This document shows positions 9,933 to 56,612 of a DNA stretch of 64,000 nt, piece after piece (the first letter of the stretch is position 1; every line of letters begins with the position of its first letter). This DNA is from a virus. Lineage: Duplodnaviria > Caudoviricetes. Made by a program: the position numbers and the translations under genes. The notes beneath the pieces are model-generated. The model saw only the letters and a list, made by a program, of their open reading frames with translations, did not search any database and was not told the origin of the DNA. The stretch lies in IMG/VR virus record IMGVR_UViG_3300041964_000148. One strand, 5' to 3'.

Positions 9933-10119
9933 CAGAACACCTCCGATGCGGGAAACTCAGTGTCCTTAGATCTGAGAGGAACGCACGGTAGCGGTTTTAA
10001 CCGCCTACAGTCTTTAGAATCCATATCCATAACCATCCTTTTGGTGAATTTGCTGACAATATTTATATTTTCTCCGTCACGGTTCTCCGTGATGAATGTA
10101 ATGAACTGCTGCCAGTGCC

Positions 10120-38712: not shown

Positions 38713-39183
38713 TTGTCGTATTACAGAGGTTTTTACGCTGTGCCTCGTTATTCCAATACACTCGAAGTCCGCTTTAATGTAGTCGAGGAGCATCGCTGGG
38801 AAGTTTACCAGGAGATGCCCAGCGTTGCTCAGTTGGGTGCCAGTGAGGCTCTCAAGCGCGACGGCTGGGTCTTTTTTGTCCGAGACAGCGATCGCATCGT
38901 TCCGTATTATTTCGATGCCAGTAGCCTAACTATTTACCCATTTACAGGCAATGTTGTCGTTGCCCCTCGGAAACTTAGGACACGCATCGGCAATGGGACA
39001 GATCGAGAATTTATCGTTAACCACGGGTTCAACTCTTTGGATGTTGATGCGTCGGCATGGGAGTTTGTCGCAACTCGTAGGTACAGAATTGAATGTAATA
39101 TCTTTAAGGTAGATGAAAATAGTATAGGTTTTGAGTTTTCCGAGCCGCCGACACAGGATGCTATCGAAGTTTTGATCGGTTAG
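38713..39183 (+). CDS. putative tail-associated protein
   Basis: IGNG....F.V.H.FN..DV...D.NSI..F..PP domain, related to the C-terminus of 33655..36525. Confidence 0.55.
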   Translation: MSYYRGFYAVPRYSNTLEVRFNVVEEHRWEVYQEMPSVAQLGASEALKRDGWVFFVRDSDRIVPYYFDASSLTIYPFTGNVVVAPRKLRTRIGNGTDREFIVNHGFNSLDVDASAWEFVATRRYRIECNIFKVDENSIGFEFSEPPTQDAIEVLIG

Positions 39184-39193
39184 ATTAAGGCAC

Positions 39194-39232
39194 AAAAAAA
39201 GCCCCCACCAGGATTTCCTGGTGGGGCTTTTT
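39194..39232. terminator. bidirectional terminator closing the ribozyme operon
   Basis: A7-GCCCCCACCAGGA-TT-TCCTGGTGGGGC-T5. Confidence 0.85.
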
Positions 39233-39267
39233 AATATTTAGTGCCTGTTATTTGGCTTCAAAAAAGT

Positions 39268-40251
39268 TTAAGCACTGGCTACAGTTTTCTTAATTACTGT
39301 AAGAACTTCTTCGGGGGAGAGTAGAGATGCATATCCCTGTTCACTTCCTCCTACTTCAGAGTTCCCACCCCAACGCTTCTCAACCTCTTCCTCTCCCCGC
39401 TTTTGGGATTCAAGGAAATTGAGTTCGTCAAAGACAGCTTGAGAATTCCAAGTCGCCTCTGGCGAATAGCGGCCAATAGTGTACTTGAGATGTGGCTCAA
39501 ATTTGCCATTCGCCGTAAATTCGGGGTTGTATGCGATCGCATACTTGCCGAAGCGGTAGGCATAACCTGTCGCCCCAATATGCGCTGATTCTACGACAGC
39601 GATGTCGCCATCAACGGCAATGAGTTTGGATGCCTTGAATGCATCCATTTTTGTTTTGATGCCCTTTTCGCGGCTACCCTCTGGTTCAACACCAGCGATA
39701 AGCCACTTCAGGACATTTACAACCTTTTGCTTAACTCCGACAGAATCGACTGCTCGTTCACGCACATAGGAGTGCATGGCAATTAGCGGATCTTTCTGGA
39801 GTTTTTCTGCATACTCCTCTGAAGACATTTCTGTCTGTGATTCTCGTACCCAGCCCCCCTTGTCGGATTTGTCCACAAGGGCAATTCGTTGAACGAAATC
39901 TCCATCAGGCTGGACACCCAGCTCATCAAAGCTTAACTGTCCATGCTTTTTAAGGAGGACTGCGGCGGCGCAGTACGCATCCAGATCTTCTTTGCCGATA
40001 AATACGGCACTGTCATGAGGTACTCGCCAGAAATGTCCGTCTGTGAACATTTCGATGGCAAAGGCCGCCGCGCTATATGGCTTATTACTTCCATCATGCT
40101 GAGGATCGATATTGAAATCCAAGGCATCAACTGCCCAAGGATAGGCTTCGGCTCCAAAGCATAAGCAGTCATATTCCTTCTTGATGCGCTCAATGAGAGC
40201 GACATCTTCGGCTTGATTGCGGGGGTTTAGGACGTAGAATGTAATGCTCAT
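39268..40251 (-). CDS. hypothetical protein, possible DHH-like phosphoesterase fold
   Basis: ID.QH, DLD, KYTI, WGG..VGGS; start moved to the ATG after GCAAAACC, downstream of the ribozyme. Confidence 0.65.
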   Translation of the reverse strand: MSITFYVLNPRNQAEDVALIERIKKEYDCLCFGAEAYPWAVDALDFNIDPQHDGSNKPYSAAAFAIEMFTDGHFWRVPHDSAVFIGKEDLDAYCAAAVLLKKHGQLSFDELGVQPDGDFVQRIALVDKSDKGGWVRESQTEMSSEEYAEKLQKDPLIAMHSYVRERAVDSVGVKQKVVNVLKWLIAGVEPEGSREKGIKTKMDAFKASKLIAVDGDIAVVESAHIGATGYAYRFGKYAIAYNPEFTANGKFEPHLKYTIGRYSPEATWNSQAVFDELNFLESQKRGEEEVEKRWGGNSEVGGSEQGYASLLSPEEVLTVIKKTVASA

Positions 40252-40291
40252 GGGTTTTGCTTGATCACGGAGAACCGTGACGATAGTTTTT

Positions 40292-40344
40292 GCTCCCTCA
40301 CTATTTTTCACCCAGGCTTGGGACTGGCGTCGGCTAGTTTAAGC
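40292..40344 (-). ncRNA. twister ribozyme (P1 type)
   Basis: GCU-UAA-ACUA-GC-CGACG-CCAG-UCCCAAGC-CUGG-GUGAAAAA-UAGU-GAGGG-AGC; predicted cut U40341/A40340. Confidence 0.88.
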
Positions 40345-40384
40345 GGCTCCCCCAAGGGGAGCCTAACTTTCATTAAACTGAGAT

Positions 40385-40873
40385 TTACTTTGATAACTTA
40401 TTTACCCATTGAAGCTGTGGGTTTTGCTCTCTAAAGGCAGAATCCCATTTATATCGCCCCATTTCTGGATGGTATGGAAAGTCATTTTCCCACCACACAG
40501 AGATACATTTTTTTAGCGATTCTAAGGTTATCATTCCTTCTACTGATGGAACACTATACCCAGAAGCCGCAGATGACTGTATTTGGGAACAAGGTATTGC
40601 TTTGAAATTAATTCCCCGCTCTAAACATCGCGAGATAATTTCCCCTAAAGCAAATATGGAATCTCTTCCAAAATCTAAAGATAGGCAATTTTGAGATTCT
40701 TGATATCGAACCTGAGAAGTGTAACTAAGAAGACTGCTATCTGGTAACTGTGTCGCAGTTCCATGATAATCGTCGTCTTCGTCTATTTTGGGAGCAAACG
40801 AGGGAAATACCTGAAATACTGCTTCTTTCGCTAGCTCTGAATTTTCTAAGAATAAAAATCTGGCTGAAAACAT
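40385..40873 (-). CDS. hypothetical protein
   Basis: GCAAAACCATG leader; flanked by ribozymes. Confidence 0.7.
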   Translation of the reverse strand: MFSARFLFLENSELAKEAVFQVFPSFAPKIDEDDDYHGTATQLPDSSLLSYTSQVRYQESQNCLSLDFGRDSIFALGEIISRCLERGINFKAIPCSQIQSSAASGYSVPSVEGMITLESLKKCISVWWENDFPYHPEMGRYKWDSAFREQNPQLQWVNKLSK

Positions 40874-40893
40874 GGTTTTGCATTATAAATTTT

Positions 40894-40945
40894 GCTCCCT
40901 CTGCATTTTTATCCAGGCTGGGGACTGGCATTGGCTGCATTAAGC
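40894..40945 (-). ncRNA. twister ribozyme (P1 type)
   Basis: GCU-UAA-UGCA-GC-CAAUG-CCAG-UCCCCAGC-CUGG-AUAAAAA-UGCA-GAGGG-AGC, close to the canonical rice twister; predicted cut U40942/A40941. Confidence 0.92.
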
Positions 40946-40970
40946 GGCTCCCAAGGGAGAGCCTTTACAT

Positions 40971-41996
40971 TTATATGAGCGCTTCGTGGGCGATCGCATT
41001 AATGTAAGCGATCGCATCCTCGTAGGTTGGGCGAGATGGGTACTCGTGAACCCCTATTTTTAGCTCAAACAGGGAAACTGGTTCCCCGAACGGGTCATTT
41101 GGGTTCTGCACCCTCGGACTTTTGCTTGTCGAGTGGCAGTATCGATCAAATAGGATGTATTTTTCTAACGTCCCTCCTTGGAGGAAGCGCTCAACGTCTT
41201 CCTCAAATGTTCGGTCTTTTGGAATAGAGTATTCTACTCCTTGAGTCCAAAAAGACTTGGACTGAACAAGGGGCATTGCTAACTTTACATGGCGTTTGCC
41301 AAGTTCAGTTGCCGCTAAATCCCAGAAAACTGCCAAGGCTTGTAGTAACTCTTCCGAGAGATCTTCTCGGTCTAGATTTAAACTGGACAACGGATGCCCA
41401 ATAACTTCATGATTGCCGTATCCTGTCCAGCGACAGTAATCCAACAAAAATTCCTCAGGGTTTTCGGGGACAACCCATCCCCATTTAATCGCTAGAAGAA
41501 GACCTTCTGCGATCGCCCATCCTACCGAATTGTTGGGGCAGTGAAGCAATCGCTGCGTCAGTCGCCCCTCTTGGGCGGCTTCAAGACTGTCATTGTTCTG
41601 GTAGCTTGTCCAGCACCAGGCCCAAGCTACAAGAGAACTTCGTAAATGTGCATGGGCGAAGTTGGGTGTATAGTTTAGGGCAATTACATCGAATATTGTT
41701 GTCCAGTAGCCCCACTCTGCTATTTCCGCCAACTTCCCCCATCCCATTTGGTTATGGGGATCGGGCAGATCGTATATCGGCTTCTCGAATATCGCGTATT
41801 CGCTTATTCCAGTTGCAATTCGTGCAATTTCTCGCACCTTTTCCGGATGTTCGTCGTCGCAGCAGGCAAGCAGATATCTTGCCGCGAATGACAAGTCACT
41901 TCCGTCTTCCAACGCTGCTATCTTCTCGATCTCTTCAATATGGCGATTGTTGATAATTGAGGCGATCATTCGTTCGATTTTTTCTTCAGATTGCAT
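40971..41996 (-). CDS. hypothetical protein
   Basis: 341-aa ORF; GCAAAACCATG leader. Confidence 0.75.
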   Translation of the reverse strand: MQSEEKIERMIASIINNRHIEEIEKIAALEDGSDLSFAARYLLACCDDEHPEKVREIARIATGISEYAIFEKPIYDLPDPHNQMGWGKLAEIAEWGYWTTIFDVIALNYTPNFAHAHLRSSLVAWAWCWTSYQNNDSLEAAQEGRLTQRLLHCPNNSVGWAIAEGLLLAIKWGWVVPENPEEFLLDYCRWTGYGNHEVIGHPLSSLNLDREDLSEELLQALAVFWDLAATELGKRHVKLAMPLVQSKSFWTQGVEYSIPKDRTFEEDVERFLQGGTLEKYILFDRYCHSTSKSPRVQNPNDPFGEPVSLFELKIGVHEYPSRPTYEDAIAYINAIAHEALI

Positions 41997-42035
41997 GGTT
42001 TTGCTTGATCACGGAGAACCGTGACGATAGTTTTT

Positions 42036-42088
42036 GCTCCCTCACTATTTTTCACCCAGGCTTGGGACTGGCGTCGGCTAGTTTAAGC
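42036..42088 (-). ncRNA. twister ribozyme (P1 type)
   Basis: Identical to the copy at 40292..40344; predicted cut U42085/A42084. Confidence 0.88.
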
Positions 42089-42113
42089 GGCTCCCAAGAG
42101 GGAGCCTATGTTG

Positions 42114-42695
42114 TTAGTTGTAAATAGAAGAGATATCCAAAATCTCATCTATCTTTTCCTGGTCTAATCCGATAATTTCGCGTTGTTTATAATAGCGGAA
42201 ATTATCATTTTCAGACATGAATTGGATGCGTTCAGCAATAGGGAGGCGAATGATTCGCTCATACGTTACTGGTAGTAGTATGTAGAAATCGTCTGAACTG
42301 AACTCAGGGTCATACCCTAAATCATCTTCGTCTGAAGAGATCCAACACGCTAGCCCAGCTTCCATTTGAAGTTTTTTTTCTACCTCGAAAACTACTTCAG
42401 ATATTCCAGCCTTTCCAGATGAAAAACAATGCCAGTCATAAGGCGCGTTATCTGATTTGTATAGGTTCGCGAACCTGTTGTCTGGAATGTCTTCGTTGCA
42501 GTGAAAAGATGCTGCTATGCCTTGGCTTCCCATCATTCCATTCCAGTGGAGCTGAATGTTTTGAACCACAATTTTTCGATTGAACAAATCCAGCATGAGC
42601 TGAATTTCTTGGTCGGTTACGAAATGGCGCTTTATTTGACGCATTTGGTGATGTGCTTCGTATTTGTACTCGTACATTAGAATTTTCCCTTTCAT
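42114..42695 (-). CDS. hypothetical protein
   Basis: Start moved to MKGKIL after AGCAAAACC. Confidence 0.7.
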   Translation of the reverse strand: MKGKILMYEYKYEAHHQMRQIKRHFVTDQEIQLMLDLFNRKIVVQNIQLHWNGMMGSQGIAASFHCNEDIPDNRFANLYKSDNAPYDWHCFSSGKAGISEVVFEVEKKLQMEAGLACWISSDEDDLGYDPEFSSDDFYILLPVTYERIIRLPIAERIQFMSENDNFRYYKQREIIGLDQEKIDEILDISSIYN

Positions 42696-42710
42696 GGTTT
42701 TGCTGATTTT

Positions 42711-42764
42711 CTCAATTGGTTGGCTATCCACACCCGCCGCGAGGAGGCTTGAGTATTTGGGTGC
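42711..42764 (-). ncRNA. minimal HDV-like ribozyme (no P4)
   Basis: GCACCC-AAAUA-CUCAA-GCC-UCCUCGC-GGC-GGGUGU-GG-AUAGCCAA-CCAA-UUGAG; predicted cut 5' of G42764. Confidence 0.85.
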
Positions 42765-42808
42765 ATTGCCCCCGAAGGGGCAGGGGAGGATTTAATCCTC
42801 TAAGAACA

Positions 42809-42982
42809 CTAAGGAGGAGTGTCATTTTCTTCGCTTTTCCACCTCTCCTCTAAGAAGTTTTCGCGCTCTAGCTCTTCATTCTTCTGTCCGGCATACCAGA
42901 CCATTAATTGGTTGAGTTTCCATGCGTTTTCAGCATTGGGGTTAGCTTTGAAGGCTTCAAAAGCTTTATCTAGTTGGTTCAT
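42809..42982 (-). CDS. small hypothetical protein
   Basis: MNQLDKAFEAF.. after an AAAGG RBS, downstream of the twister. Confidence 0.65.
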   Translation of the reverse strand: MNQLDKAFEAFKANPNAENAWKLNQLMVWYAGQKNEELERENFLEERWKSEENDTPP

Positions 42983-43001
42983 TGATTTACCTTTGTAAAT
43001 T

Positions 43002-43057
43002 ACACCTCTCTGCGTTAGGGGCTGGAGACCCTTAGCTTTCGCTAGGCGCATTAGTAC
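43002..43057 (-). ncRNA. twister ribozyme with P3 hairpin
   Basis: GUAC-UAA-UGCGCC-UAGC-GAAA-GCUA-AGGG-UCUCCAGC-CCCU-AA-CGCA-GAGAG-GUGU; pseudoknot covaries to CUC/GAG; predicted cut U43053/A43052. Confidence 0.8.
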
Positions 43058-43106
43058 GCCCCCAAAGGGGCGGGGGAGGATTTAATCCTCTAGATTTACG
43101 CTATTA

Positions 43107-43385
43107 TCAACTAGCCAATTTAACATTCCATTGACTTCCCATACCCATGTCATACTGACGACGGCACGAGACTGGAAACTTCTCTCCATCTATTTCTGTA
43201 TGTCCTTTGTAGTCTTCTCCTCCTCCGTAAGCGTCAGAAAAAGTATTGGTACGCTCAAGATGAAAGACTAAATCATAGCGAGTACTCTCTGGAATAGTTC
43301 TAATTTTGTCAAGCAGTGATGGAGTCCGGATGTGTACTCCGTCAGTTACCGCTTTTCTCATTTGTTCCATTGTCCACTGTGTCAT
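43107..43385 (-). CDS. hypothetical protein
   Basis: 92-aa ORF between ribozymes; AAGGA RBS. Confidence 0.7.
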   Translation of the reverse strand: MTQWTMEQMRKAVTDGVHIRTPSLLDKIRTIPESTRYDLVFHLERTNTFSDAYGGGEDYKGHTEIDGEKFPVSCRRQYDMGMGSQWNVKLAS

Positions 43386-43417
43386 TTGTTTTTCCTTGTC
43401 ATGGTTTTGCTGATTTT

Positions 43418-43471
43418 CTCAATTAGTTGTATATCCACACCCGCCACGAGGAGGCTTGAGTATTTGGGTGC
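43418..43471 (-). ncRNA. minimal HDV-like ribozyme (no P4)
   Basis: GCACCC-AAAUA-CUCAA-GCC-UCCUCGU-GGC-GGGUGU-GG-AUAUACAA-CUAA-UUGAG; predicted cut 5' of G43471. Confidence 0.88.
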
Positions 43472-43506
43472 ATGGGCGATAACTCAAGAGAGCGATCGCC
43501 TGACTA

Positions 43507-44334
43507 TTAGTCCTTTAAATAAATTGCGTTAGGTGGTACGGGGGTTAGTACTTCCTCCGTCTCGTAATCCCAAGGTTCTTGACTTTTTCGCTTATGAACG
43601 AAAGAGACCAAAAACTTTTGATTACCCTCTTCTTTAAGAAGTTCTGAACGCATATCAACGTTGATTCTAGGAGCATCATTTAGCTCCCATTGATTGTCAG
43701 GAACCTCTAGTAAATCAACAAGCATATTGGGTTTGTTGATTAACCATTTTTCAATACTCTCGAAGTCGTCAAGGCTGCAACCGTAGTAGCCCTGTAGAGT
43801 TAAGTTGAGCGTTTTATCTACGCTTATTCCGCTCCATCCACTGTCATAGTAGTATGGGACAGATTCTAACCCTTTTTCAAGGATTGATGTTGCTGCAAAT
43901 TGAATTGCTTCTTCACAAGAGTGAAACTCTTTGCCTAGTAATTGCTGAAGAGTTGCTTGGAGATCCTTTAAAGGTTTTCCAAAAACTACGTCTTTAGCAG
44001 CAAAGACTACTTCATTGCGAAACCGTTCATCGCTAGCAGCTAATGTTACTGCCTCTGCGGCTGTGACAAGAATGCATCTTCCGTCCCAGTCTTCATCTTC
44101 GTCTCGTGGAACGTCGTACCCATCTTTGGCGAGGAATACCAGCGCTTCATCGGGAATGAGGATTTCATAAATTCCGAAGTTATCCCATCCTTCTGGAAGG
44201 TATGGGTAGGCGAACCCAACCTTTCCCTCTAATAAGAAAGAGAGGTGATTGCGATCGCTTCCGTGGTAACTGTCTCCTGGTTTTACAGGGGAAAAGTTTA
44301 TTCCACTTCCTAAGCTGTGATAGAAAATTGTCAT
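43507..44334 (-). CDS. hypothetical protein
   Basis: 275-aa ORF; AAAGCAAAACCAATG leader. Confidence 0.75.
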   Translation of the reverse strand: MTIFYHSLGSGINFSPVKPGDSYHGSDRNHLSFLLEGKVGFAYPYLPEGWDNFGIYEILIPDEALVFLAKDGYDVPRDEDEDWDGRCILVTAAEAVTLAASDERFRNEVVFAAKDVVFGKPLKDLQATLQQLLGKEFHSCEEAIQFAATSILEKGLESVPYYYDSGWSGISVDKTLNLTLQGYYGCSLDDFESIEKWLINKPNMLVDLLEVPDNQWELNDAPRINVDMRSELLKEEGNQKFLVSFVHKRKSQEPWDYETEEVLTPVPPNAIYLKD

Positions 44335-44354
44335 TGGTTTTGCTTTAATTAAAT

Positions 44355-44414
44355 GTACCCTTCTGCGTTTATTCAGACTTAGGACTGACAGCTAATAGCT
44401 GGTCGCATTAGTAC
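44355..44414 (-). ncRNA. twister ribozyme with P3 hairpin
   Basis: GUAC-UAA-UGCG-AC-CAGCU-AUU-AGCUG-UCAG-UCCUAAGU-CUGA-AUAAA-CGCA-GAAGG-GUAC; both pseudoknots covary (CCU/AGG, AC/GU); predicted cut U44410/A44409. Confidence 0.9.
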
Positions 44415-44443
44415 GCCCCCGAAGGGGCATTAGTTTATCTGTA

Positions 44444-45115
44444 TCAAGAAACGGCTTCAAAGATTGAAGCTAAATTCTTGAAAGTTTTGAAATAAAATGT
44501 GCCGTATTTTACCCATTGATGGTAGTTACCATCATGAATGGGCGTATGCTCACTTGAGCGAGCATCATACACAACTGGATTACTTGGAAGTGTTCGTATC
44601 TTTTGCTCCATCCCTTCAATTAGAAGGGTTGAAGAGATTTTATCCCACCACAGCACCCATAAGTCATCCCAAGCTCGTCGCCCGTCTGCTATCTGCATCT
44701 CTGGATAAAGACACAAGAAAACAAACTCAGGCATTAGTTCTTCCCAACTATAGGGAATTCCTTGTCGGCGATGGTCTTTTTTCTCAACCATTTTTGGCTG
44801 TTTTTTCATGAATTCTGCGATCACTGTCGGTTGCAGTAACGGGACAGGGATACAAGCGTAAGCTTCCCCTTCTCCTATAGATATTCCGGCTAAGTCGTAG
44901 TAGGCGTTGTCTCCTGCATCTTCGTAGACCAGGGAACAAGCCCCTGACTCATAAGCAGTAGCCCAAAGCAAGTTGGCGTAGAAAAGGAGGGTTTCATTTC
45001 CCTCGTGTGCCACCGCCTTGGCTTTGAACTTGTTACTTAGATTGATTGCCATTTTTGCTCTGGTAGAAGCATCTGGCATGATTTCAGTTTTGGCATTGAT
45101 TTGTTGATTCGTCAT
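44444..45115 (-). CDS. hypothetical protein
   Basis: Start moved to MTNQQ, downstream of the ribozyme. Confidence 0.7.
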   Translation of the reverse strand: MTNQQINAKTEIMPDASTRAKMAINLSNKFKAKAVAHEGNETLLFYANLLWATAYESGACSLVYEDAGDNAYYDLAGISIGEGEAYACIPVPLLQPTVIAEFMKKQPKMVEKKDHRRQGIPYSWEELMPEFVFLCLYPEMQIADGRRAWDDLWVLWWDKISSTLLIEGMEQKIRTLPSNPVVYDARSSEHTPIHDGNYHQWVKYGTFYFKTFKNLASIFEAVS

Positions 45116-45141
45116 TGTTTTTACTGATGGTTTTGCTTTAT

Positions 45142-45194
45142 GTTCAATTGGTTGGTTATCCGCACCCGCCGCGTGGAGGCTTGAACTTGGGTGC
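45142..45194 (-). ncRNA. minimal HDV-like ribozyme (no P4)
   Basis: GCACCC-AA-GUUCAA-GCC-UCCACGC-GGC-GGGUGC-GG-AUAACCAA-CCAA-UUGAAC; P2 covaries relative to the other two copies; predicted cut 5' of G45194. Confidence 0.87.
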
Positions 45195-45219
45195 ATTGCC
45201 CCCGAAGGGGCGGGAGGAA

Positions 45220-45591
45220 TTAAAGCCTCCAAGTCGTGTCGCGTCCCTGTCTGGGATCTTTTCCGCAACCGTTGTTCTGGGTTGCGGCGACTCTATCTCT
45301 TTCAGCTTGCTTCCGGTTTAGTTCTTCAACTCGCTCAAGTTTTACAAGCTGCTCACGCAATTTCTTGAGTTGAGGCTCTAACTCTTTCTGGAGAGCGATC
45401 GCTGTCCGCTGTTGGGCTCGCAGCGAATCTATCTCCGCTTGAATTGCAGCAAGAACCTCTGGAGGTTTATTCCGCTTCTTGGCTCCAAGAGGCTGGAGTT
45501 TCCTGCTACAATCCCATCGCTGGGATGTAGCAATATCAAGTTGCTGTTCTAGTGAGGCAATTTCTTGTCTCAATTTGTTAATGTCAGTCAT
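45220..45591 (-). CDS. coiled-coil hypothetical protein
   Basis: TAATG-coupled to the upstream gene. Confidence 0.7.
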   Translation of the reverse strand: MTDINKLRQEIASLEQQLDIATSQRWDCSRKLQPLGAKKRNKPPEVLAAIQAEIDSLRAQQRTAIALQKELEPQLKKLREQLVKLERVEELNRKQAERDRVAATQNNGCGKDPRQGRDTTWRL

Positions 45592-46028
45592 TAGTTGCTC
45601 TGGCAGAAATGGCAGTCGTACCCAGTACGGTACTCTCCGCTAGCCCCGTTGAAGGAGCCACAATACCCGCAGTAATCTCCGTTGCCACAGAGATGCTCTG
45701 TGACCGTTTTGAAATACAGGGGCTTGATTAAGCAGAAGTCGCCTTCTACCCGCATTCCATAAGTGCCGAAGCTGCTTCCGTCAGAACGGAATGGGCGGAA
45801 TAGTTTCCACTCTTCGCCCCCATTTTGCCAACTAACAATGGTGTCGTTTTGGCGCTGGGGAGGGGTTTTCTCTCCGATTGCGAAGGTGTCTTTTACTTGG
45901 CAAGCAACAAGATGGTTGTTTTCCATCTCATTGATTTCCTCGGCAGACTTCTCTTTGAAACGAGAAGAACTCCTTACCGTAGTGAAATTTTGGTAAAGAT
46001 CACTCGTGAACATATAGTAATTCATCAT
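45591..46028 (-). CDS. hypothetical protein with C-terminal Zn ribbon (first gene of the operon)
   Basis: CGYCG..CHFC; ATG after AGCAAAACC. Confidence 0.7.
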   Translation of the reverse strand: MMNYYMFTSDLYQNFTTVRSSSRFKEKSAEEINEMENNHLVACQVKDTFAIGEKTPPQRQNDTIVSWQNGGEEWKLFRPFRSDGSSFGTYGMRVEGDFCLIKPLYFKTVTEHLCGNGDYCGYCGSFNGASGEYRTGYDCHFCQSN

Positions 46029-46052
46029 GGTTTTGCTTCCTAACATAATACC

Positions 46053-46082
46053 ATTGTAACATTTGTGTTACACCACCGTCAA
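46053..46082 (-). promoter_or_regulatory. sigma-70 promoter with overlapping palindromic operator
   Basis: TTGACG-N18-TACAAT with TG extension; palindrome TGTAACA-N4-TGTTACA at 46055..46072. Confidence 0.7.
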
Positions 46083-46156
46083 TCTGTCTTTCAACAGTAT
46101 ACGTAGCACTGGAAGACCCCACTTCCATCACTTTCAAGTTATGAAGCTATGAACTA

Positions 46157-46867
46157 TCACAGTCCTCTGGGAGTGGGGCGATAGTGGGCGATCGCACCCT
46201 CTAGTTGCTCAACCAATCTTTCCCTCACACCTGATTGGCTCAGTACTTTGCAATCCTTCCCGTACCGGATGATTTCCCGGATGAACCAGAAGGTACTTGT
46301 AATCCTGCGGGTGACGACCTTCACCTTGCCGTCCCAAGAGTCAAGCCGATCCTTCTCCCCCTCCCTGAAGGCGTGAGCCAGCCCTCTGTATAATTCAAAC
46401 TGCACAGGAATCGTTGCCATGCCTTCTTCCCGCCAAGTGCTGGCATCCAGCGGGAAGAAGGCATCAGCGTTAGTTACGCGGTCAAACCGGAAGCACCAGT
46501 TATGGCGCAGTGGCTCTAAGTCCTGGTTATCCTCGGTTTCATCGCACCAGCATTCGAGGTAGTAGTAGCCCTCTCTAAGCACTCGCTCTCCGTAGCGAAC
46601 GGTGAAGACAAAGGGTTTGCCCGCTGCATCTGCGTAGGAGAAACGAAAGGGAGTTTTGTTGCACAACAGTTCTAAAATCTTCCTCGCCTGGGGTGAGTCT
46701 AGGCTGGGAGGTATGCTTGTTTCGACTGCTTCGTGTGCGATCGCCTTGTAGAAAGCCGTCTGATTTCCTTCTTCGCCCCACAGGTATCCGTGTTTGGCTG
46801 CGATCACCTTGAATTGCCGTTGCTCCTCTTCAGTAACACTGAGTTGGACTGTATTTCGCTTGCTCAT
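46157..46867 (-). CDS. WYL-domain transcriptional regulator (RHH-like N-terminus, cyanobacterial type)
   Basis: QLSV.E.E...F..IA..HG..WG..GN; F.FSY.DA.G; YLECWCDETE; NW.FRFDR; FWF.REI.RYG..C.V. Confidence 0.85.
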   Translation of the reverse strand: MSKRNTVQLSVTEEEQRQFKVIAAKHGYLWGEEGNQTAFYKAIAHEAVETSIPPSLDSPQARKILELLCNKTPFRFSYADAAGKPFVFTVRYGERVLREGYYYLECWCDETEDNQDLEPLRHNWCFRFDRVTNADAFFPLDASTWREEGMATIPVQFELYRGLAHAFREGEKDRLDSWDGKVKVVTRRITSTFWFIREIIRYGKDCKVLSQSGVRERLVEQLEGAIAHYRPTPRGL

Positions 46868-51587: not shown

Positions 51588-54080
51588 ATGGTTTCCCTAG
51601 AAAAATTCGTCCGCCCCGACTTCGCCGAAGGTAGATTTACTGATCTAAATGAAGGAAGGATTATGGGTGGAATCCCCGCAGAGATAACTTCTCTGGATGA
51701 CCCAGAAAAAATTGGGCGAATTCAAGTCTGTTGTCCCCTAATTGATGACACTGCAAACCTGCCAAATGGAGAAGATGGTTGGGTTCACGTTATTGAACTT
51801 TTTACGAATAATGCAACTCCCGGTGGAGACCATCGTTTACTTCACCTGGGCAGCCAGGTAATCCTTCTCCCTATATTAGGGCATCCCAACCAAATGATAC
51901 TTCTGGGCTGTATTCCCAACCGAGTGGATCGCCCTTCCCCGGAGGTAAATCGGGCGGAAGGGTTGTATGGGCATCAGACTCAGAACGGAATTTTTAAAAT
52001 CCGCAACGACAAGGAGCAATCAGAAATTAATGCATTCCCCCACGGAGTAACACAACATATCTCTGGCGCTGGGGATATCACCCAGCAAACTAAAGAGGGA
52101 GCGAAGATGCAGCTCAAAGCCGATGGCACCGTTCGTAACGAGAACCCCAAGTCTTCAACGACACTCGCGCCGGATGGCAGTGTAGAGACGCGGAATGCGG
52201 CATCCGGTACCAGTGTACTCACCAAAGACGGCAACTGGGAAATCAAATCTAAAAACCAAGCCTCTCTAAAACTCAACGCCGGCGATGCGGTGATGGAAGG
52301 TCCGAAGTCCCAACTCTCCTCCCTCGTCTCTGACCTTAAGCAAAAACTCGCCGGACCACTTGGGCAAGGCGAGTCCCTTGTGCGCCAAATTGAAGGGCTT
52401 AAGGATTCAATCGGCACCATGAGTGTGGATAACCTACTTGTCCAACTACCTCAGGCGATCGCATCCGTAAACGAAATTATTAAATCCTTTCCCGACGCAT
52501 TAGACACCCTTAACGAACTTAAGAAGTTTTCTGTTGAGGAACTCGGCGATTCGCTCATGGGGCAGGCTAACCACTTCCTCGACAAGGGGATAGGGAATAT
52601 TATCCCTGTAATTCAGAAGGTCTTATCCAGTCCTGGCTCTATTGAAGACAAGGTGAATGAACTAGTACTAAACCTGGGCTATACCGGATCTAAACAAGAC
52701 CTACAGAGGACTTTATCAAGTCTAGACGGGATGCCCGATATCCAGACACAGGCTGTAGTAAGCCTTGTAGCGCCTGGGGGGTTTGAGGCATCGCAGAACA
52801 TATTCGGTTTGGGATTGGAATCTTCCCTGGCTAAACTAGACCTACACCTGAACTCTACTAGACCTGTACTAGAGCTAAACCAGGAATTTACGACTAGCTC
52901 CAGTTCAGATCAAGTTCAGGGCTTGTCAAGTACTAATCAAGACCTAAACCTGGCTAAGGTGAGTGAGATGCTAACTAAACTTGGGATTGATAAAACCAAT
53001 CTAGACCTAGCTGCCATCCTTGACCCCAGCTTCTCCTTTACTCCCTCCCGACAAACTAATCCAAATTCACTCGTCACGGAGAACCGTGATATAAAACAAT
53101 TCCTTAACCAATTAATTGAACGAGAAATCCCCAGCCTCCTTCCTGCTCAACTAAAAGATCTATTCAGCAAGGGCGACGTAACAAATCTGGTTCAACTTGC
53201 CCTAACCGGAGGCAACCCGATGGGTATGTTGCTGGGTCAATCCGCCTCAAAACTTGTTGGGGATTTAGCGCCAACCTTATTGCAGGGTGTCGGACTAGGG
53301 AGTGCGATCGCTCCCGTCCAGAAAATCCTTAGTTCCCTCCAGTCGGGCAAATTGGATGGGGTGGGAGAAATTATTAACGACATCATTCCTGGTTTAGACC
53401 TTGATAAGGTCTTGTCAGGTGGTGTCCAGAGTGTTGTCGAGAACGTATTGCCCGATGTTTTGGGTGGATTAACGGGTAAACTTGGCGGACTCTTTGGTGG
53501 TGGGAAGAAAAAAGCTAACTTCGCCTTCAATTCTCTGGACGGCTCTGCGAAGGGTGGAGTTGTCCGTGCTAGTAAAGACAAAGTTGAAGTGGTGGCAGAC
53601 TCTGCTTTGCCCACTGCCAAGATGGTTGTTACGAAGGCGAAGGCATCCCTCGTTGCTCAAACTGGACTTGCCGAAGTGTTCGCGGGCGGTGCGACGGCTG
53701 GGCTATCTACCCCGTTCGGCTCATTCGGGTTTGGTCCCGATGGCGGAGACCTCTTTTCTAAGGGGGCGATGGCGATGCGAATTGCTCAAGAGCTTGGTAA
53801 GTCGGCGGGGTTGATGCTGCATCCTAAATCTGGCGTGTCCCTGGCTAGTTTTGCCGATAAGAAAAAGACGGCTGAAGTCACAATTGATGAGGGCAATATT
53901 TATATTTTTTCTTACGGCAGTGGACACGATGGTATTGCTGTCACTCCCGATGGTGTTTACCTAGAAGGCTGCCATATCCGATCCCTAGTTAATCGCCTTT
54001 CTAGTTTGGAATCTTCGTTCGCTAACTTATCTATCCAATCTGACTTAGGCGATGATTTCATCGGTGGTGCAATTGTTTAA
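51588..54080 (+). CDS. gp5/VgrG/gpV-like baseplate spike with large internal helical domain
   Basis: OB-fold (A.IT.LDDPE.IGRIQV..G.QV...GHPN...LG), followed by beta-repeats. Confidence 0.8.
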   Translation: MVSLEKFVRPDFAEGRFTDLNEGRIMGGIPAEITSLDDPEKIGRIQVCCPLIDDTANLPNGEDGWVHVIELFTNNATPGGDHRLLHLGSQVILLPILGHPNQMILLGCIPNRVDRPSPEVNRAEGLYGHQTQNGIFKIRNDKEQSEINAFPHGVTQHISGAGDITQQTKEGAKMQLKADGTVRNENPKSSTTLAPDGSVETRNAASGTSVLTKDGNWEIKSKNQASLKLNAGDAVMEGPKSQLSSLVSDLKQKLAGPLGQGESLVRQIEGLKDSIGTMSVDNLLVQLPQAIASVNEIIKSFPDALDTLNELKKFSVEELGDSLMGQANHFLDKGIGNIIPVIQKVLSSPGSIEDKVNELVLNLGYTGSKQDLQRTLSSLDGMPDIQTQAVVSLVAPGGFEASQNIFGLGLESSLAKLDLHLNSTRPVLELNQEFTTSSSSDQVQGLSSTNQDLNLAKVSEMLTKLGIDKTNLDLAAILDPSFSFTPSRQTNPNSLVTENRDIKQFLNQLIEREIPSLLPAQLKDLFSKGDVTNLVQLALTGGNPMGMLLGQSASKLVGDLAPTLLQGVGLGSAIAPVQKILSSLQSGKLDGVGEIINDIIPGLDLDKVLSGGVQSVVENVLPDVLGGLTGKLGGLFGGGKKKANFAFNSLDGSAKGGVVRASKDKVEVVADSALPTAKMVVTKAKASLVAQTGLAEVFAGGATAGLSTPFGSFGFGPDGGDLFSKGAMAMRIAQELGKSAGLMLHPKSGVSLASFADKKKTAEVTIDEGNIYIFSYGSGHDGIAVTPDGVYLEGCHIRSLVNRLSSLESSFANLSIQSDLGDDFIGGAIV

Positions 54081-55319
54081 ACTTCCCCGACCTCGGCGTA
54101 AGCAGGTCGGGGATTTCAGTAGCCCTAAGACATGATGCTCTAACGAGCAAGCAAGTCCTGAACCTCTAGGCTGGTCTAAAAGCAGCCCCAATGTAGAAAT
54201 ATTCTTAGCCCCATTCTCATCAGCATCACCAACCCAACCGCAATGACCGCATCTAAACTTCTTGCCACTTCTGTACGATTCACCTCTAACGGGGTGGATA
54301 TGCAGACACTTGTGGCAGGTCTGGGATGTATAACGAGGGTCAACAAACACCAGATTTATGCCAAACTTTACGGCTTTATAAGTGAGGAACTGGCGAAGCT
54401 GAAAAAACGCCCAACTATTACTTCTCCGTCTCTCTGTTTTAGAGCGAGGTTGTTGGTTGGTGCGCTCTCTGATGCCCGTCAAATCTTCCAGCGCAATGGT
54501 TTGTTTGGTGTTTTTGGCGTACTGAATGAGTCGGTAGCTGACAGTATGATTAACTTGTGCCTGAAATCTTCGCTCTCGCCCACTCAACCGTTGCAAGACC
54601 TGTCTCGCTCTACGGCGAGTAGACCTTGTGCCTTTGGACGCTTTCTCTTGTAACGAAGCTCTCACACGAGAATACTTGTCACGAACGAGTGTTATTTCCT
54701 TTCCACTAAACTTCTCCCCATCAGAGGTAACAGCAATGTCAGTGCGTCCCAAATCAACACCCAAAACCTTATCGGTCTTTTCAGGGTTTGGTGGCTCAGA
54801 TTCAAGCTGAATTTGCAGGTAATAAGTACCGTCTTTCCGCTTAACCAATACTGCCGTTTTAGGGTTCTTTCCAGTGAGCAAGTGACGTTGATAGTTGCCG
54901 ATATGCAAAGGGAACTTTTCTCTCCCTTTCATCATGGTCAAACTAACACTCCAGTCTTTCTCCTTAAAAGTGAAAGTTCTGGCGTCATAGGTTGCACTGG
55001 TTGGAGCAAACCCATTGACAGGTCGATTCTGTTGCTTTGCCGTTTTGCGGTTGGCACAGACCCTACGAACAGCATGGATAGTCATCTGAGCAGACAAACC
55101 AGAGTATTCCCGCGCTTCCTTGTAAATCAGGGATTGCACAGCAATTTGGTTAGTCAGCCTTGGGTCTGTGTTTTTGTTCACGTACTCACAGCAGCTTGCA
55201 AAGGCACGAAGTACCGCATCAAGTTTTTCAACCTGATGTTGAGATACTTCGAGTTTGCAGCTAACCGTAAGAACTTGAGACATTTTCAAATGTTGAAGAT
55301 TATGCTGCCAATATACCAT
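54045..55319 (-). CDS. tnpB: RNA-guided endonuclease TnpB (reads through the element end)
   Basis: GVDLG / ALEDL / DADEN; Zn finger; likely start MSQVLT. Confidence 0.92.
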   Translation of the reverse strand: MVYWQHNLQHLKMSQVLTVSCKLEVSQHQVEKLDAVLRAFASCCEYVNKNTDPRLTNQIAVQSLIYKEAREYSGLSAQMTIHAVRRVCANRKTAKQQNRPVNGFAPTSATYDARTFTFKEKDWSVSLTMMKGREKFPLHIGNYQRHLLTGKNPKTAVLVKRKDGTYYLQIQLESEPPNPEKTDKVLGVDLGRTDIAVTSDGEKFSGKEITLVRDKYSRVRASLQEKASKGTRSTRRRARQVLQRLSGRERRFQAQVNHTVSYRLIQYAKNTKQTIALEDLTGIRERTNQQPRSKTERRRSNSWAFFQLRQFLTYKAVKFGINLVFVDPRYTSQTCHKCLHIHPVRGESYRSGKKFRCGHCGWVGDADENGAKNISTLGLLLDQPRGSGLACSLEHHVLGLLKSPTCLRRGRGSLNNCTTDEIIA

Positions 55320-55649: not shown

Positions 55650-56612
55650 TTAAACGAGATCCTCAAGTTTTATCTTTTTCTTGTAAGCTGTTTTCTTGAG
55701 TTTTTGCAGCGCCTTATTTTCGATCTGCCGAACTCGTTCTCGACTTAAATCTAATATCCTACCTATTTCAGCTAGGGTCATTGGCTCCCCTTCTCGACCA
55801 AAATATCGAAACTGAATTACCTCACGCTCTCTAGAGGTTAGATTATCCAATAAAACCCCCGCTGCTTCTTCTAAATCTGGGGAAACTGGGTCTTTTTCAT
55901 CCGGGATTAAATCTATTAGCTCAGTCTCGCTGTCCTTCCCGATAGGAGTTGACAGCGATACGACTTTTCTACTATGGCTTAGAACCTCGAATACATCTTC
56001 AACCTTTATTCCTAGCGCTTCTGCAATATCAGCCGCTTTTGGAGTCCTGCCCAGTTTGGATGCTAGTTCCCTAGATGCCTTCTTGATCTTGTTGAGTTTT
56101 TCTGTCATGTGAACCGGGATTCTGACTGAGCGAGAGTCAATGGCGATCGCGCGCGTAATTGCTTGGCGAATCCACCAGTAGGCATAGGTTGAGAATTTGT
56201 AACCTTTTTCCGGGTCAAATTTCTCTGCTGCTCGTTGCACCCCTAAATTCCCTTCTTGGATTAACTGCTGGAAATCCAAACCCCGATTTTGATACTTTTT
56301 GGCGCAAGCGACAACTAATTTTAAATTCGATGTCACCATTTTTTCTTTGGCTTTCATCCCTTTTCTCTCGGTGCGAAGAAGTTGGGACGGCTCCATGTTG
56401 GCAGCATCAGCCCACTCTTCTAGTGATGGCTCCCTCTCAAGAGTCCCCTGGAGAACCTCTCGGATTTCCTGCAACCTAACTAGTAAGACAACTTGCCGAG
56501 AGAGTTCAATTTCTTCCGCTGGCTTAAGTAGGGGAATTCTACCGATATCGCACAAATACTGGCGGACGCCATCCGTTATCAATGGTTTTTGCTTAGGTTT
56601 TTTTGTTGGCAT
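55650..56612 (-). CDS. RpoD/SigA-family (group 2-like) sigma factor
   Basis: YL.DIGRIPLL, LIQEG.LG..RA.EKFDP.KGYKFSTYAYWWIRQ, LSRERVRQIE. Confidence 0.93.
   Translation of the reverse strand: MPTKKPKQKPLITDGVRQYLCDIGRIPLLKPAEEIELSRQVVLLVRLQEIREVLQGTLEREPSLEEWADAANMEPSQLLRTERKGMKAKEKMVTSNLKLVVACAKKYQNRGLDFQQLIQEGNLGVQRAAEKFDPEKGYKFSTYAYWWIRQAITRAIAIDSRSVRIPVHMTEKLNKIKKASRELASKLGRTPKAADIAEALGIKVEDVFEVLSHSRKVVSLSTPIGKDSETELIDLIPDEKDPVSPDLEEAAGVLLDNLTSREREVIQFRYFGREGEPMTLAEIGRILDLSRERVRQIENKALQKLKKTAYKKKIKLEDLV

Follow-up and report, generated by a model that had tools for sequence, protein, structure and literature searches.

We analysed a stretch of 64,000 nucleotides (the window) from the viral record IMGVR_UViG_3300041964_000148 of IMG/VR (Duplodnaviria; Caudoviricetes), in which a first-pass annotation, made by a reader that saw the sequence alone, had described five copies of the twister self-cleaving ribozyme. 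Our computational follow-up covered the whole 64-kb window. The copies lie on the minus strand between 40291 and 44414, within an operon of about 6.9 kb that begins at a promoter-like site near 46082, ends at a terminator at 39203-39226 and holds ten open reading frames (ORFs), g1 to g10 (Table 1). Self-cleaver elements were found at eight of the nine gene junctions: five are twisters and three are hepatitis delta virus (HDV)-like elements that lack helix P4. The sole junction without a ribozyme is that between g1 and g2, where the ORFs overlap. The promoter-like site is the only strong one on the minus strand in 38900-46400, and no comparable minus-strand signal was detected between it and the terminator that closes the operon. 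We consider it highly probable that the five twister-like elements are genuine type-P1 twister self-cleaving ribozymes, one per spacer of a single operon.

All five annotated twisters exist, but the copies at 40291 and 42035 are identical and sit in an identical block of 99 nt (40351..40253 = 42095..41997), so that four independent sequences are available. At its default gathering thresholds Rfam returned no match anywhere in the window. When the search was run in E-value mode, RF03160 (twister-P1) matched the 44355 copy with 55.9 bits (E 1.7e-10), the 40893 copy with 48.4 bits, and the 40291 and 42035 copies with 44.1 bits apiece; the 43002 copy (33.8 bits, E 1.1e-5) appeared only when a small local region was scanned. 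The whole-window Rfam scan in E-value mode listed no further ribozyme. The curated gathering score of RF03160 is 67.2 bits, and the alignments show that the copies fall short of it because P3 is missing or short and P1 is short (3–4 bp). A gathering threshold is a database rule rather than a biochemical feature. Poor covariance-model scores had been named in the first-pass annotation as grounds for abandoning the assignment; the scores do lie below the Rfam cut-off, yet with E-values of 1e-5 to 1e-10 the matches are not poor in the sense intended. A covariance model built from the five copies and run over the 64-kb window with filters off recovered exactly these five, at 59–87 bits, and the next match scored 12 bits. 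Chance matches were excluded by the E-values and the window-wide scan. Canonical twister cores were also found by pattern search in more than 100 viral contigs.

The helices were examined by reading the minus strand and by an alignment based on the covariance model; MAFFT applied to tightly trimmed copies misaligned the 3' ends. The forms of P2 (ACUA/UAGU, UGCA/UGCA, UGCG/CGCA), P4 (CCAG/CUGG, UCAG/CUGA, AGGG/CCCU) and the pseudoknot T1 (CCC/GGG, CCU/AGG, CUC/GAG) were all recovered as first annotated. The same was true of GCU/AGC and GUAC/GUAC in P1, where the 43002 copy differs in having GUAC/GUGU with two G-U pairs. For the second pseudoknot, T2, both annotated forms are present (GC/GC in three copies and AC/GU in the 44355 copy, with an imperfect T2 in the 43002 copy), but the change to AC/GU occurs in a single copy, and the closest relative of that copy, at 2411 in contig L229, has an A.C mismatch at the same pair. 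T2 would thus be weaker evidence for covariation than T1. The cleavage-site UAA and, ahead of T1, the GA that contains the G put forward as general base do not vary, as had been claimed; the residues that are invariant in all copies are U-A-A, G-U before T1, AG of loop L4, AA before P2' and GA before T1'. The A that is usually conserved after the T1 strand in L4 is a C in the 40893 and 43002 copies. The optional P3 was located in two copies, 43002 and 44355.

With both pseudoknots included, 95.1% of the pair cells in the window copies were paired and 15 of the 22 pairs had changed on both sides, values that are suggestive but short of conclusive, given that they come from four distinct sequences and that the structure was read from the same sequences. 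None of 500 column shuffles reached the window pairing values, and pairing dropped to 26–38% when the 3' partners were slid by 1–3 columns. Seven more twisters in sister phage contigs (Table 1) extended the set to 11 distinct sequences, in which 95.5% of cells were paired and 16 of 22 pairs had changed on both sides (28–40% paired in the slid controls). The sister set contributed new compensatory forms in P2 (UCUC/GAGA), P1 (GUAU/AUAC) and T1 (UCC/GGA). T1 was 100% paired in the 11 sequences, and each of its three pairs shows a C-G to U-A swap; P2 and P4 were also 100% paired, and P1 was 84–88% paired and covaried. The innermost and outermost pairs of P1 are often unpaired, and in the crystal structure of the env22 twister merely two P1 pairs are Watson-Crick (PMC5408937). 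Between the window and L229 the ribozymes are 93–98% identical, as against 61–74% at the DNA level for the flanking genes. Such an excess of ribozyme over gene identity would fit purifying selection. Taken with the compensatory counts in both sets, it supports the proposal of the first-pass annotation that structure and not sequence is under selection. Decayed duplicates were ruled out as an explanation, because the copies diverge in sequence while the pairing stays. The minimum-energy fold of the entire junction gave a hairpin followed by P1, P2 (with P3 where present) and P4 in four of the five copies.

The exception is the 43002 copy, the sole junction whose minimum-energy fold swaps P1 and P2 for a competing helix and also the copy that Rfam scores lowest. 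Its T2, read in the standard register, consists of a C.C at the first pair plus a C-G, and its relative in contig L237 has a G-C at the first pair; the alternative register, which was that of the first-pass annotation, results in a P2 of 3 bp. Large-scale tests of natural twisters have shown that stems tolerate imperfections and that pseudoknots and catalytic residues are sensitive (PMC11662667). The earlier suggestion that this copy may cleave more slowly is plausible and a fair guess.

The three junctions without a twister carry the P4-less HDV-like elements B1, B2 and B3. These consist of P1 (GCACCC/GGGUGU), P3 (GCC/GGC) around an L3 loop of sequence UCCUCGC, a GG for P1.1, a linker of 8 nt where P4 would be, then C-N-A-A and the 3' strand of P2. 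The elements thus have the nested double pseudoknot of P1, P1.1, P2 and P3 together with the J4/2 cytosine and G1 at the predicted cut. HDV-type models of Rfam matched them weakly (17 bits), and a model of the element itself found exactly three copies in the window. Among nine distinct copies from the window and the sister contigs, 99.3% of the cells were paired and 7 of 16 pairs had changed on both sides. Covariation was detected in P1 (GCACCC/GGGUGU, GCGAUC/GAUCGC, GUACCU/GGGUAU and GCACUC/GAGUGU), in P2, and in P3, which is either GCC/GGC or ACC/GGU; the CC of L3, the GG and the C in CAAC-N-AA were invariant. Many viral contigs share the P3-L3-P1 core, there as part of canonical HDV-like ribozymes that have P4; in gut phages, "minimal" HDV-like ribozymes without P4 have been described (PMC10879173).

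The eight ribozyme junctions follow a common layout. At every one of them, whichever the class of ribozyme, a stable GC hairpin ends 2–5 nt before the predicted cut, which lies 25–54 nt past the stop codon and 68–89 nt ahead of the next AUG, so that all copies are intergenic. A hairpin at this position of twisters, P0, is a known optional stem present in about 10% of candidates, and its role has been described as unclear (PMC11662667). That the same hairpin precedes the unrelated HDV-like ribozymes suggests that it serves the upstream cleavage product and not the ribozyme; a twister-specific role was ruled out on the same ground.

Two further hairpin-like sequences were observed at some junctions. 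A second small hairpin (GAGGAUUAAAUCCUC or GGAGGCUUUAAUUCCUCC) stands before the GC hairpin at 43076-43090, 42786-42800 and 45214-45231 on the minus strand and recurs in L229; its matches to Rfam PhotoRC-I were weak and non-significant. The window contains 11 copies of the 15-nt quasi-palindrome CACGGTTCTCCGTGA (0 expected). Two of the sites, at 40265-40279 and 42009-42023 on the minus strand, are in the leaders just past the 40291 and 42035 twisters, and the others are at 10078, 14581, 19929, 23948, 27453, 32669, 33346, 53074 and 59454. Sister phages also have a hairpin at the leader position, although neither its stem (CACAG…CUGUG) nor its loop is the same, and CACGGTTCTCCGTGA may for this reason act as an RNA hairpin or as a protein-binding site.

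Sister contigs were reached via homologues of two operon proteins, and their loci were obtained by exact-protein look-ups. Wider searches, with g8 against viral_contigs, with a g2 alignment against metagenome_contigs, viral_contigs and genome_contigs, and with megablast against plasmids, yielded no relatives. The longest contig that carries g2 measures 245 kb. The sequence GCGATCGC (HIP1), which we take to be a cyanobacterial signature, occurs 68 times in the window against 0.57 expected, and the window appears to be part of a large cyanobacterial phage-like genome. Only g2, g8 and g10 are common to most sister loci, and the other cassettes differ in content and order. At equivalent junctions the class of ribozyme changes. 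Ahead of g8 the window has a twister, but L226, L229 and L232 have an HDV-like ribozyme there; three lineages have twisters ahead of g10, and L226 has an HDV-like ribozyme; and in the spacer that follows g2 the window and L226 carry an HDV-like ribozyme where L229, L232, L237 and L243 carry a twister. In the more distant relatives L233 and L239 no ribozyme was found at the gene junctions, which instead have a terminator hairpin with a U tract and then a repeated promoter-like box (TTAAAC … TGTGATAAAAT). So neighbouring genes appear to be separated into individual RNAs in three interchangeable ways, all of which place a hairpin at the 3' end. The interchange of classes is the strongest indirect argument available, and it argues that the selected function would be cutting at that spot. 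A gene of the PNK3P family (polynucleotide kinase 3'-phosphatase) was noticed near the homologous block in L233 (3943-4992) and L231 (29-334); enzymes of this type act on 5'-OH and 3'-phosphate ends, the kind left by the ribozymes.

The ten operon proteins had no family assignment beyond coiled-coil noise in Pfam, PHROGs, NCBIfam and PADLOC. AlphaFold2 models were of low confidence (mean predicted local distance difference test score 58.5 for g8 and 63.6 for g10), and a Foldseek search of PDB with the g10 model gave no match below E 0.028. The sister loci L229 and L232 retain the UGUUACAAU element of the promoter region. Upstream of the operon promoter (46090-46130) lies an inverted repeat, GGAAG-N-CUUCC (GGAAGUGGGGUCUUCC), that is likewise preserved in sister loci. 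Directly upstream of the operon is a WYL/WCX regulator gene (46157-46867, minus) that is conserved in L229 and L232. The conserved GCAAAACCAUG at the start of the g5 cassette (43385-43402, minus) opens only a 6-codon mini-ORF, the stop of which overlaps the ATG of the 92-aa ORF (AAAUGA). Farther away, a TnpB / Cas12f-like (OrfB_IS605) gene at 54045-55319 on the minus strand adjoins a sigma-70 family gene at 55650-56612.

Table 1. Features of the ribozyme operon in the window and of related loci. All cuts are predicted; hairpins of the P0 type precede the twisters.
Feature	Location	Coordinates	Strand	Remarks
Promoter-like site	window	46053..46082	minus	TTGACG, 18 nt, TACAAT; TG before second hexamer; 10/12 matches
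g1	window	45591..46046	minus	151 aa; first gene; no family
g2	window	45220..45591	minus	123 aa; conserved coiled-coil protein; homologues 47–72% identical in sister phage contigs
GC hairpin GCCCCUUCGGGGGC	window	45198..45211	minus	ends 3 nt before B3 cut
B3, P4-less HDV-like ribozyme	window	45142..45194	minus	cut 45195/45194; 91 bits with model R2
g3	window	44444..45115	minus	223 aa; no family
P0-type GC hairpin	window	44415..44428	minus	ahead of twister 44355
Twister, type P1 with P3	window	44355..44414	minus	cut U44410/A44409; T1 CCU/AGG, T2 AC/GU
g4	window	43507..44334	minus	275 aa; no family; L232 homologue 65% identical
Hairpin GGCGAUCGC...GCC	window	43475..43500	minus	ends 3 nt before B2 cut
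B2, P4-less HDV-like ribozyme	window	43418..43471	minus	cut 43472/43471
g5	window	43107..43385	minus	92 aa; no family
P0-type GC hairpin	window	43058..43071	minus	ahead of twister 43002; second hairpin 43076-43090
Twister, type P1 with P3 (GAAA loop)	window	43002..43057	minus	cut U43053/A43052; weakest copy
g6	window	42809..42982	minus	57 aa; no family
GC hairpin	window	42768..42781	minus	ends 3 nt before B1 cut
B1, P4-less HDV-like ribozyme	window	42711..42764	minus	cut 42765/42764
g7	window	42114..42695	minus	193 aa; no family
P0-type GC hairpin	window	42089..42106	minus	ahead of twister 42035
Twister, type P1 without P3	window	42035..42089	minus	cut U42085/A42084; identical to 40291 copy
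g8	window	40971..41996	minus	341 aa; no family; 51–60% identity in sister phages
P0-type GC hairpin	window	40946..40963	minus	ahead of twister 40893
Twister, type P1 without P3	window	40893..40946	minus	cut U40942/A40941
g9	window	40385..40873	minus	162 aa; no family
P0-type GC hairpin	window	40345..40363	minus	ahead of twister 40291
Twister, type P1 without P3	window	40291..40345	minus	cut U40341/A40340
g10	window	39268..40251	minus	327 aa; no family; homologues 79% identical in L226 and L229
Intrinsic terminator	window	39203-39226 (feature row 39195..39226)	minus	10-bp stem, then U run; closes operon
Sister twisters	L229	2411-2480, 4332-4396, 5279-5342		same kind
Sister twisters	L232	1549-1616, 4144-4207		same kind
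Sister twister	L237	3530-3607		same kind
Sister twister	L243	778-843		same kind
Terminator plus promoter-box junctions	L233	5418-5536, 5900-6045, 8245-8356, 8807-8895
Terminator plus promoter-box junctions	L239	1820-1956

The role of the ribozymes is, with good probability, the cutting of the operon transcript into single-gene mRNAs that end in a hairpin, a prediction supported by the presence of one strong promoter-like site and one intrinsic terminator, the intergenic position of the ribozymes and the constant hairpin. From the known chemistry of the two classes (PMC5408937, PMC8782182), each ribozyme would fold and cut as RNA polymerase passes the junction. The upstream message would then end in the hairpin, 3–5 nt and a 2',3'-cyclic phosphate. 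At the start of the downstream message there would be a 5'-hydroxyl and the folded ribozyme, followed by a short leader (…GCAAAACCAUG). The operon would in this way be converted into single-gene mRNAs with stability and translation independent of their neighbours, which would make gene cassettes easy to exchange.

Several points weigh against this interpretation. In hosts that have RNase J, the downstream RNA could be made less stable by its 5'-hydroxyl end instead of being protected, as with glmS and RNase J1 in Bacillus. All five twisters score under the RF03160 cut-off (33.8–55.9 versus 67.2 bits), the 43002 copy combines an imperfect T2 with a competing fold, and the high identity of ribozymes between lineages could come in part from recent recombination. 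In addition, high-throughput measurements in vitro gave a lower mean fraction cleaved for twisters with an upstream P0 (0.40 versus 0.85; PMC11662667), and some copies may on that account be slow or conditional.

The reduced cleavage in vitro of twisters bearing P0 (PMC11662667) and the competing fold of the 43002 copy would also agree with ribozymes that are regulated or deliberately slow switches, held inactive by P0 or by some factor of phage or host, with the effect that the balance between polycistronic and cut RNA, and with it how strongly each cassette is expressed, would shift during infection. The 5' arm of the 40291-type P0, GGCUCCC, has a further complement in GGGAGC at the ribozyme's 3' end, making an inactive conformer possible; a WYL/WCX regulator gene is located at the head of the operon; and regulated cleavage was raised by Perreault et al. 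for phage hammerheads (PMC3088659). We nevertheless think a switch unlikely, as the minimum-energy folds of four of the five junctions contain the active secondary structure with a separate P0, and neither a ligand-binding domain nor an extra conserved element is present. Moreover, the HDV-like ribozymes have no sequence in common with the twisters and have the same hairpin, so a twister-specific inhibitory pairing would not be general.

The 99-nt identical block ahead of g8 and g10, the variable content and order of cassettes among sister phages, and the near-identical ribozyme types at different junctions in different lineages could also indicate that the junction modules, repeats of 60–100 bp, are mainly DNA recombination sites for shuffling accessory cassettes, with an RNA activity that is secondary or a relic of a mobile ribozyme-bearing element. 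Recombination needs identity and not pairing, however, and the copies vary yet pair in every helix and both pseudoknots. Two unrelated ribozyme classes in the same slot point to a need for cutting, and shuffling is more naturally read as a side effect of the modular layout; we consider recombination as the main function very improbable. Lastly, the ends left by twister and HDV-like cleavage fit RtcB chemistry, and a PNK3P-family gene lies near the operon in the relatives L233 and L231. A host RtcB-type ligase might accordingly join internal cistrons with 5'-OH and 2',3'-cyclic-phosphate ends into circular or spliced RNAs. This outcome is scarcely credible: ligation would restore an intact ribozyme able to recut, no ligase gene was seen in the operon, and Perreault et al., who looked for circular or spliced RNAs from hammerhead arrays, detected none (PMC3088659). 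Processing into single-gene mRNAs is the explanation that we retain. A tentative extension of it, on which we would not insist, is that the P0 hairpin might be the protective 3' end of the upstream message and no part of the ribozyme, and that a hairpin, any self-cleaver and a leader might together form a class-independent boundary cassette that replaces a terminator-promoter pair.

In synthetic biology, insulators of the RiboJ type, attributed to Lou et al. 2012, reportedly use a self-cleaving ribozyme, with a hairpin after it in some designs, just upstream of the start region to strip away upstream RNA context. In contrast to RiboJ, the elements described here are natural, belong to the twister and HDV-like classes and have an extra hairpin on the upstream product; insulation by them is putative. 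The twisters have the P1-P2-P4 core, the 3-bp T1, the 2-bp T2 (intact in four of the five copies), the U-A cleavage site and the GA before T1 of the type-P1 class (RF03160; Roth et al. 2014 as reviewed in PMC5408937; PMC11662667), along with the optional P3 in two copies and an upstream P0 in all. They differ from typical RF03160 members in their sub-threshold scores, a P1 of 3–4 bp, the lack of P3 in three copies, the C in place of the conserved L4 A in two copies, one covaried and one imperfect T2, and their location in a cyanobacterial phage-like genome. The HDV-like elements resemble the minimal HDV-like or theta ribozymes (Riccitelli et al. 2014, via PMC10879173; Kienbeck et al. 2024, PMC10879173) in P1, P1.1, P2, P3, an L3 of UCCNCGN, the J4/2 C, the absence of P4 and the tailed-phage-like genome. 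Unlike those of gut phages, they are found after protein-coding genes and not tRNAs, in a genome with a cyanobacterial and not a Bacteroidota host signature, and in alternation with twisters at equivalent junctions (PMC10879173).

The closest precedent for the arrangement was reported in 2011, when hammerhead arrays were found to flank single genes in prophages, cleavage was demonstrated in vitro and in E. coli, and a role in phage transcript processing was proposed (Perreault et al. 2011, PMC3088659). Later work put twisters in comparable surroundings and suggested this role for them too, while still calling their function largely elusive (PMC6765202). As in the hammerhead arrays, several self-cleavers per transcription unit here flank single phage genes or small groups of genes of unknown function; the present array differs in its twister and HDV-like classes, its higher density (8/9 junctions) and the constant hairpin before each predicted cut, and its cleavage is predicted from sequence, that of the hammerheads having been shown experimentally (PMC3088659). 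The locus holds no new ribozyme class; its ribozymes add members to a known family, in a setting of a type already known. The distinctive points are the density, the two interchangeable classes, the constant hairpin and the informative relatives.

What self-cleaving ribozymes do in bacteria and phages is a question still regarded as largely unsettled (PMC6765202), and this locus is an unusually clean natural test bed. All eight ribozymes of the operon are missed at the default thresholds of Rfam, and a concrete explanation is offered for the P0 stem of twisters. If the junctions do act as boundary cassettes, each accessory gene would have its own mRNA and the genes would be freely exchangeable, and the operon and its relatives would constitute a natural three-way comparison of twister, HDV-like ribozyme and terminator plus promoter.

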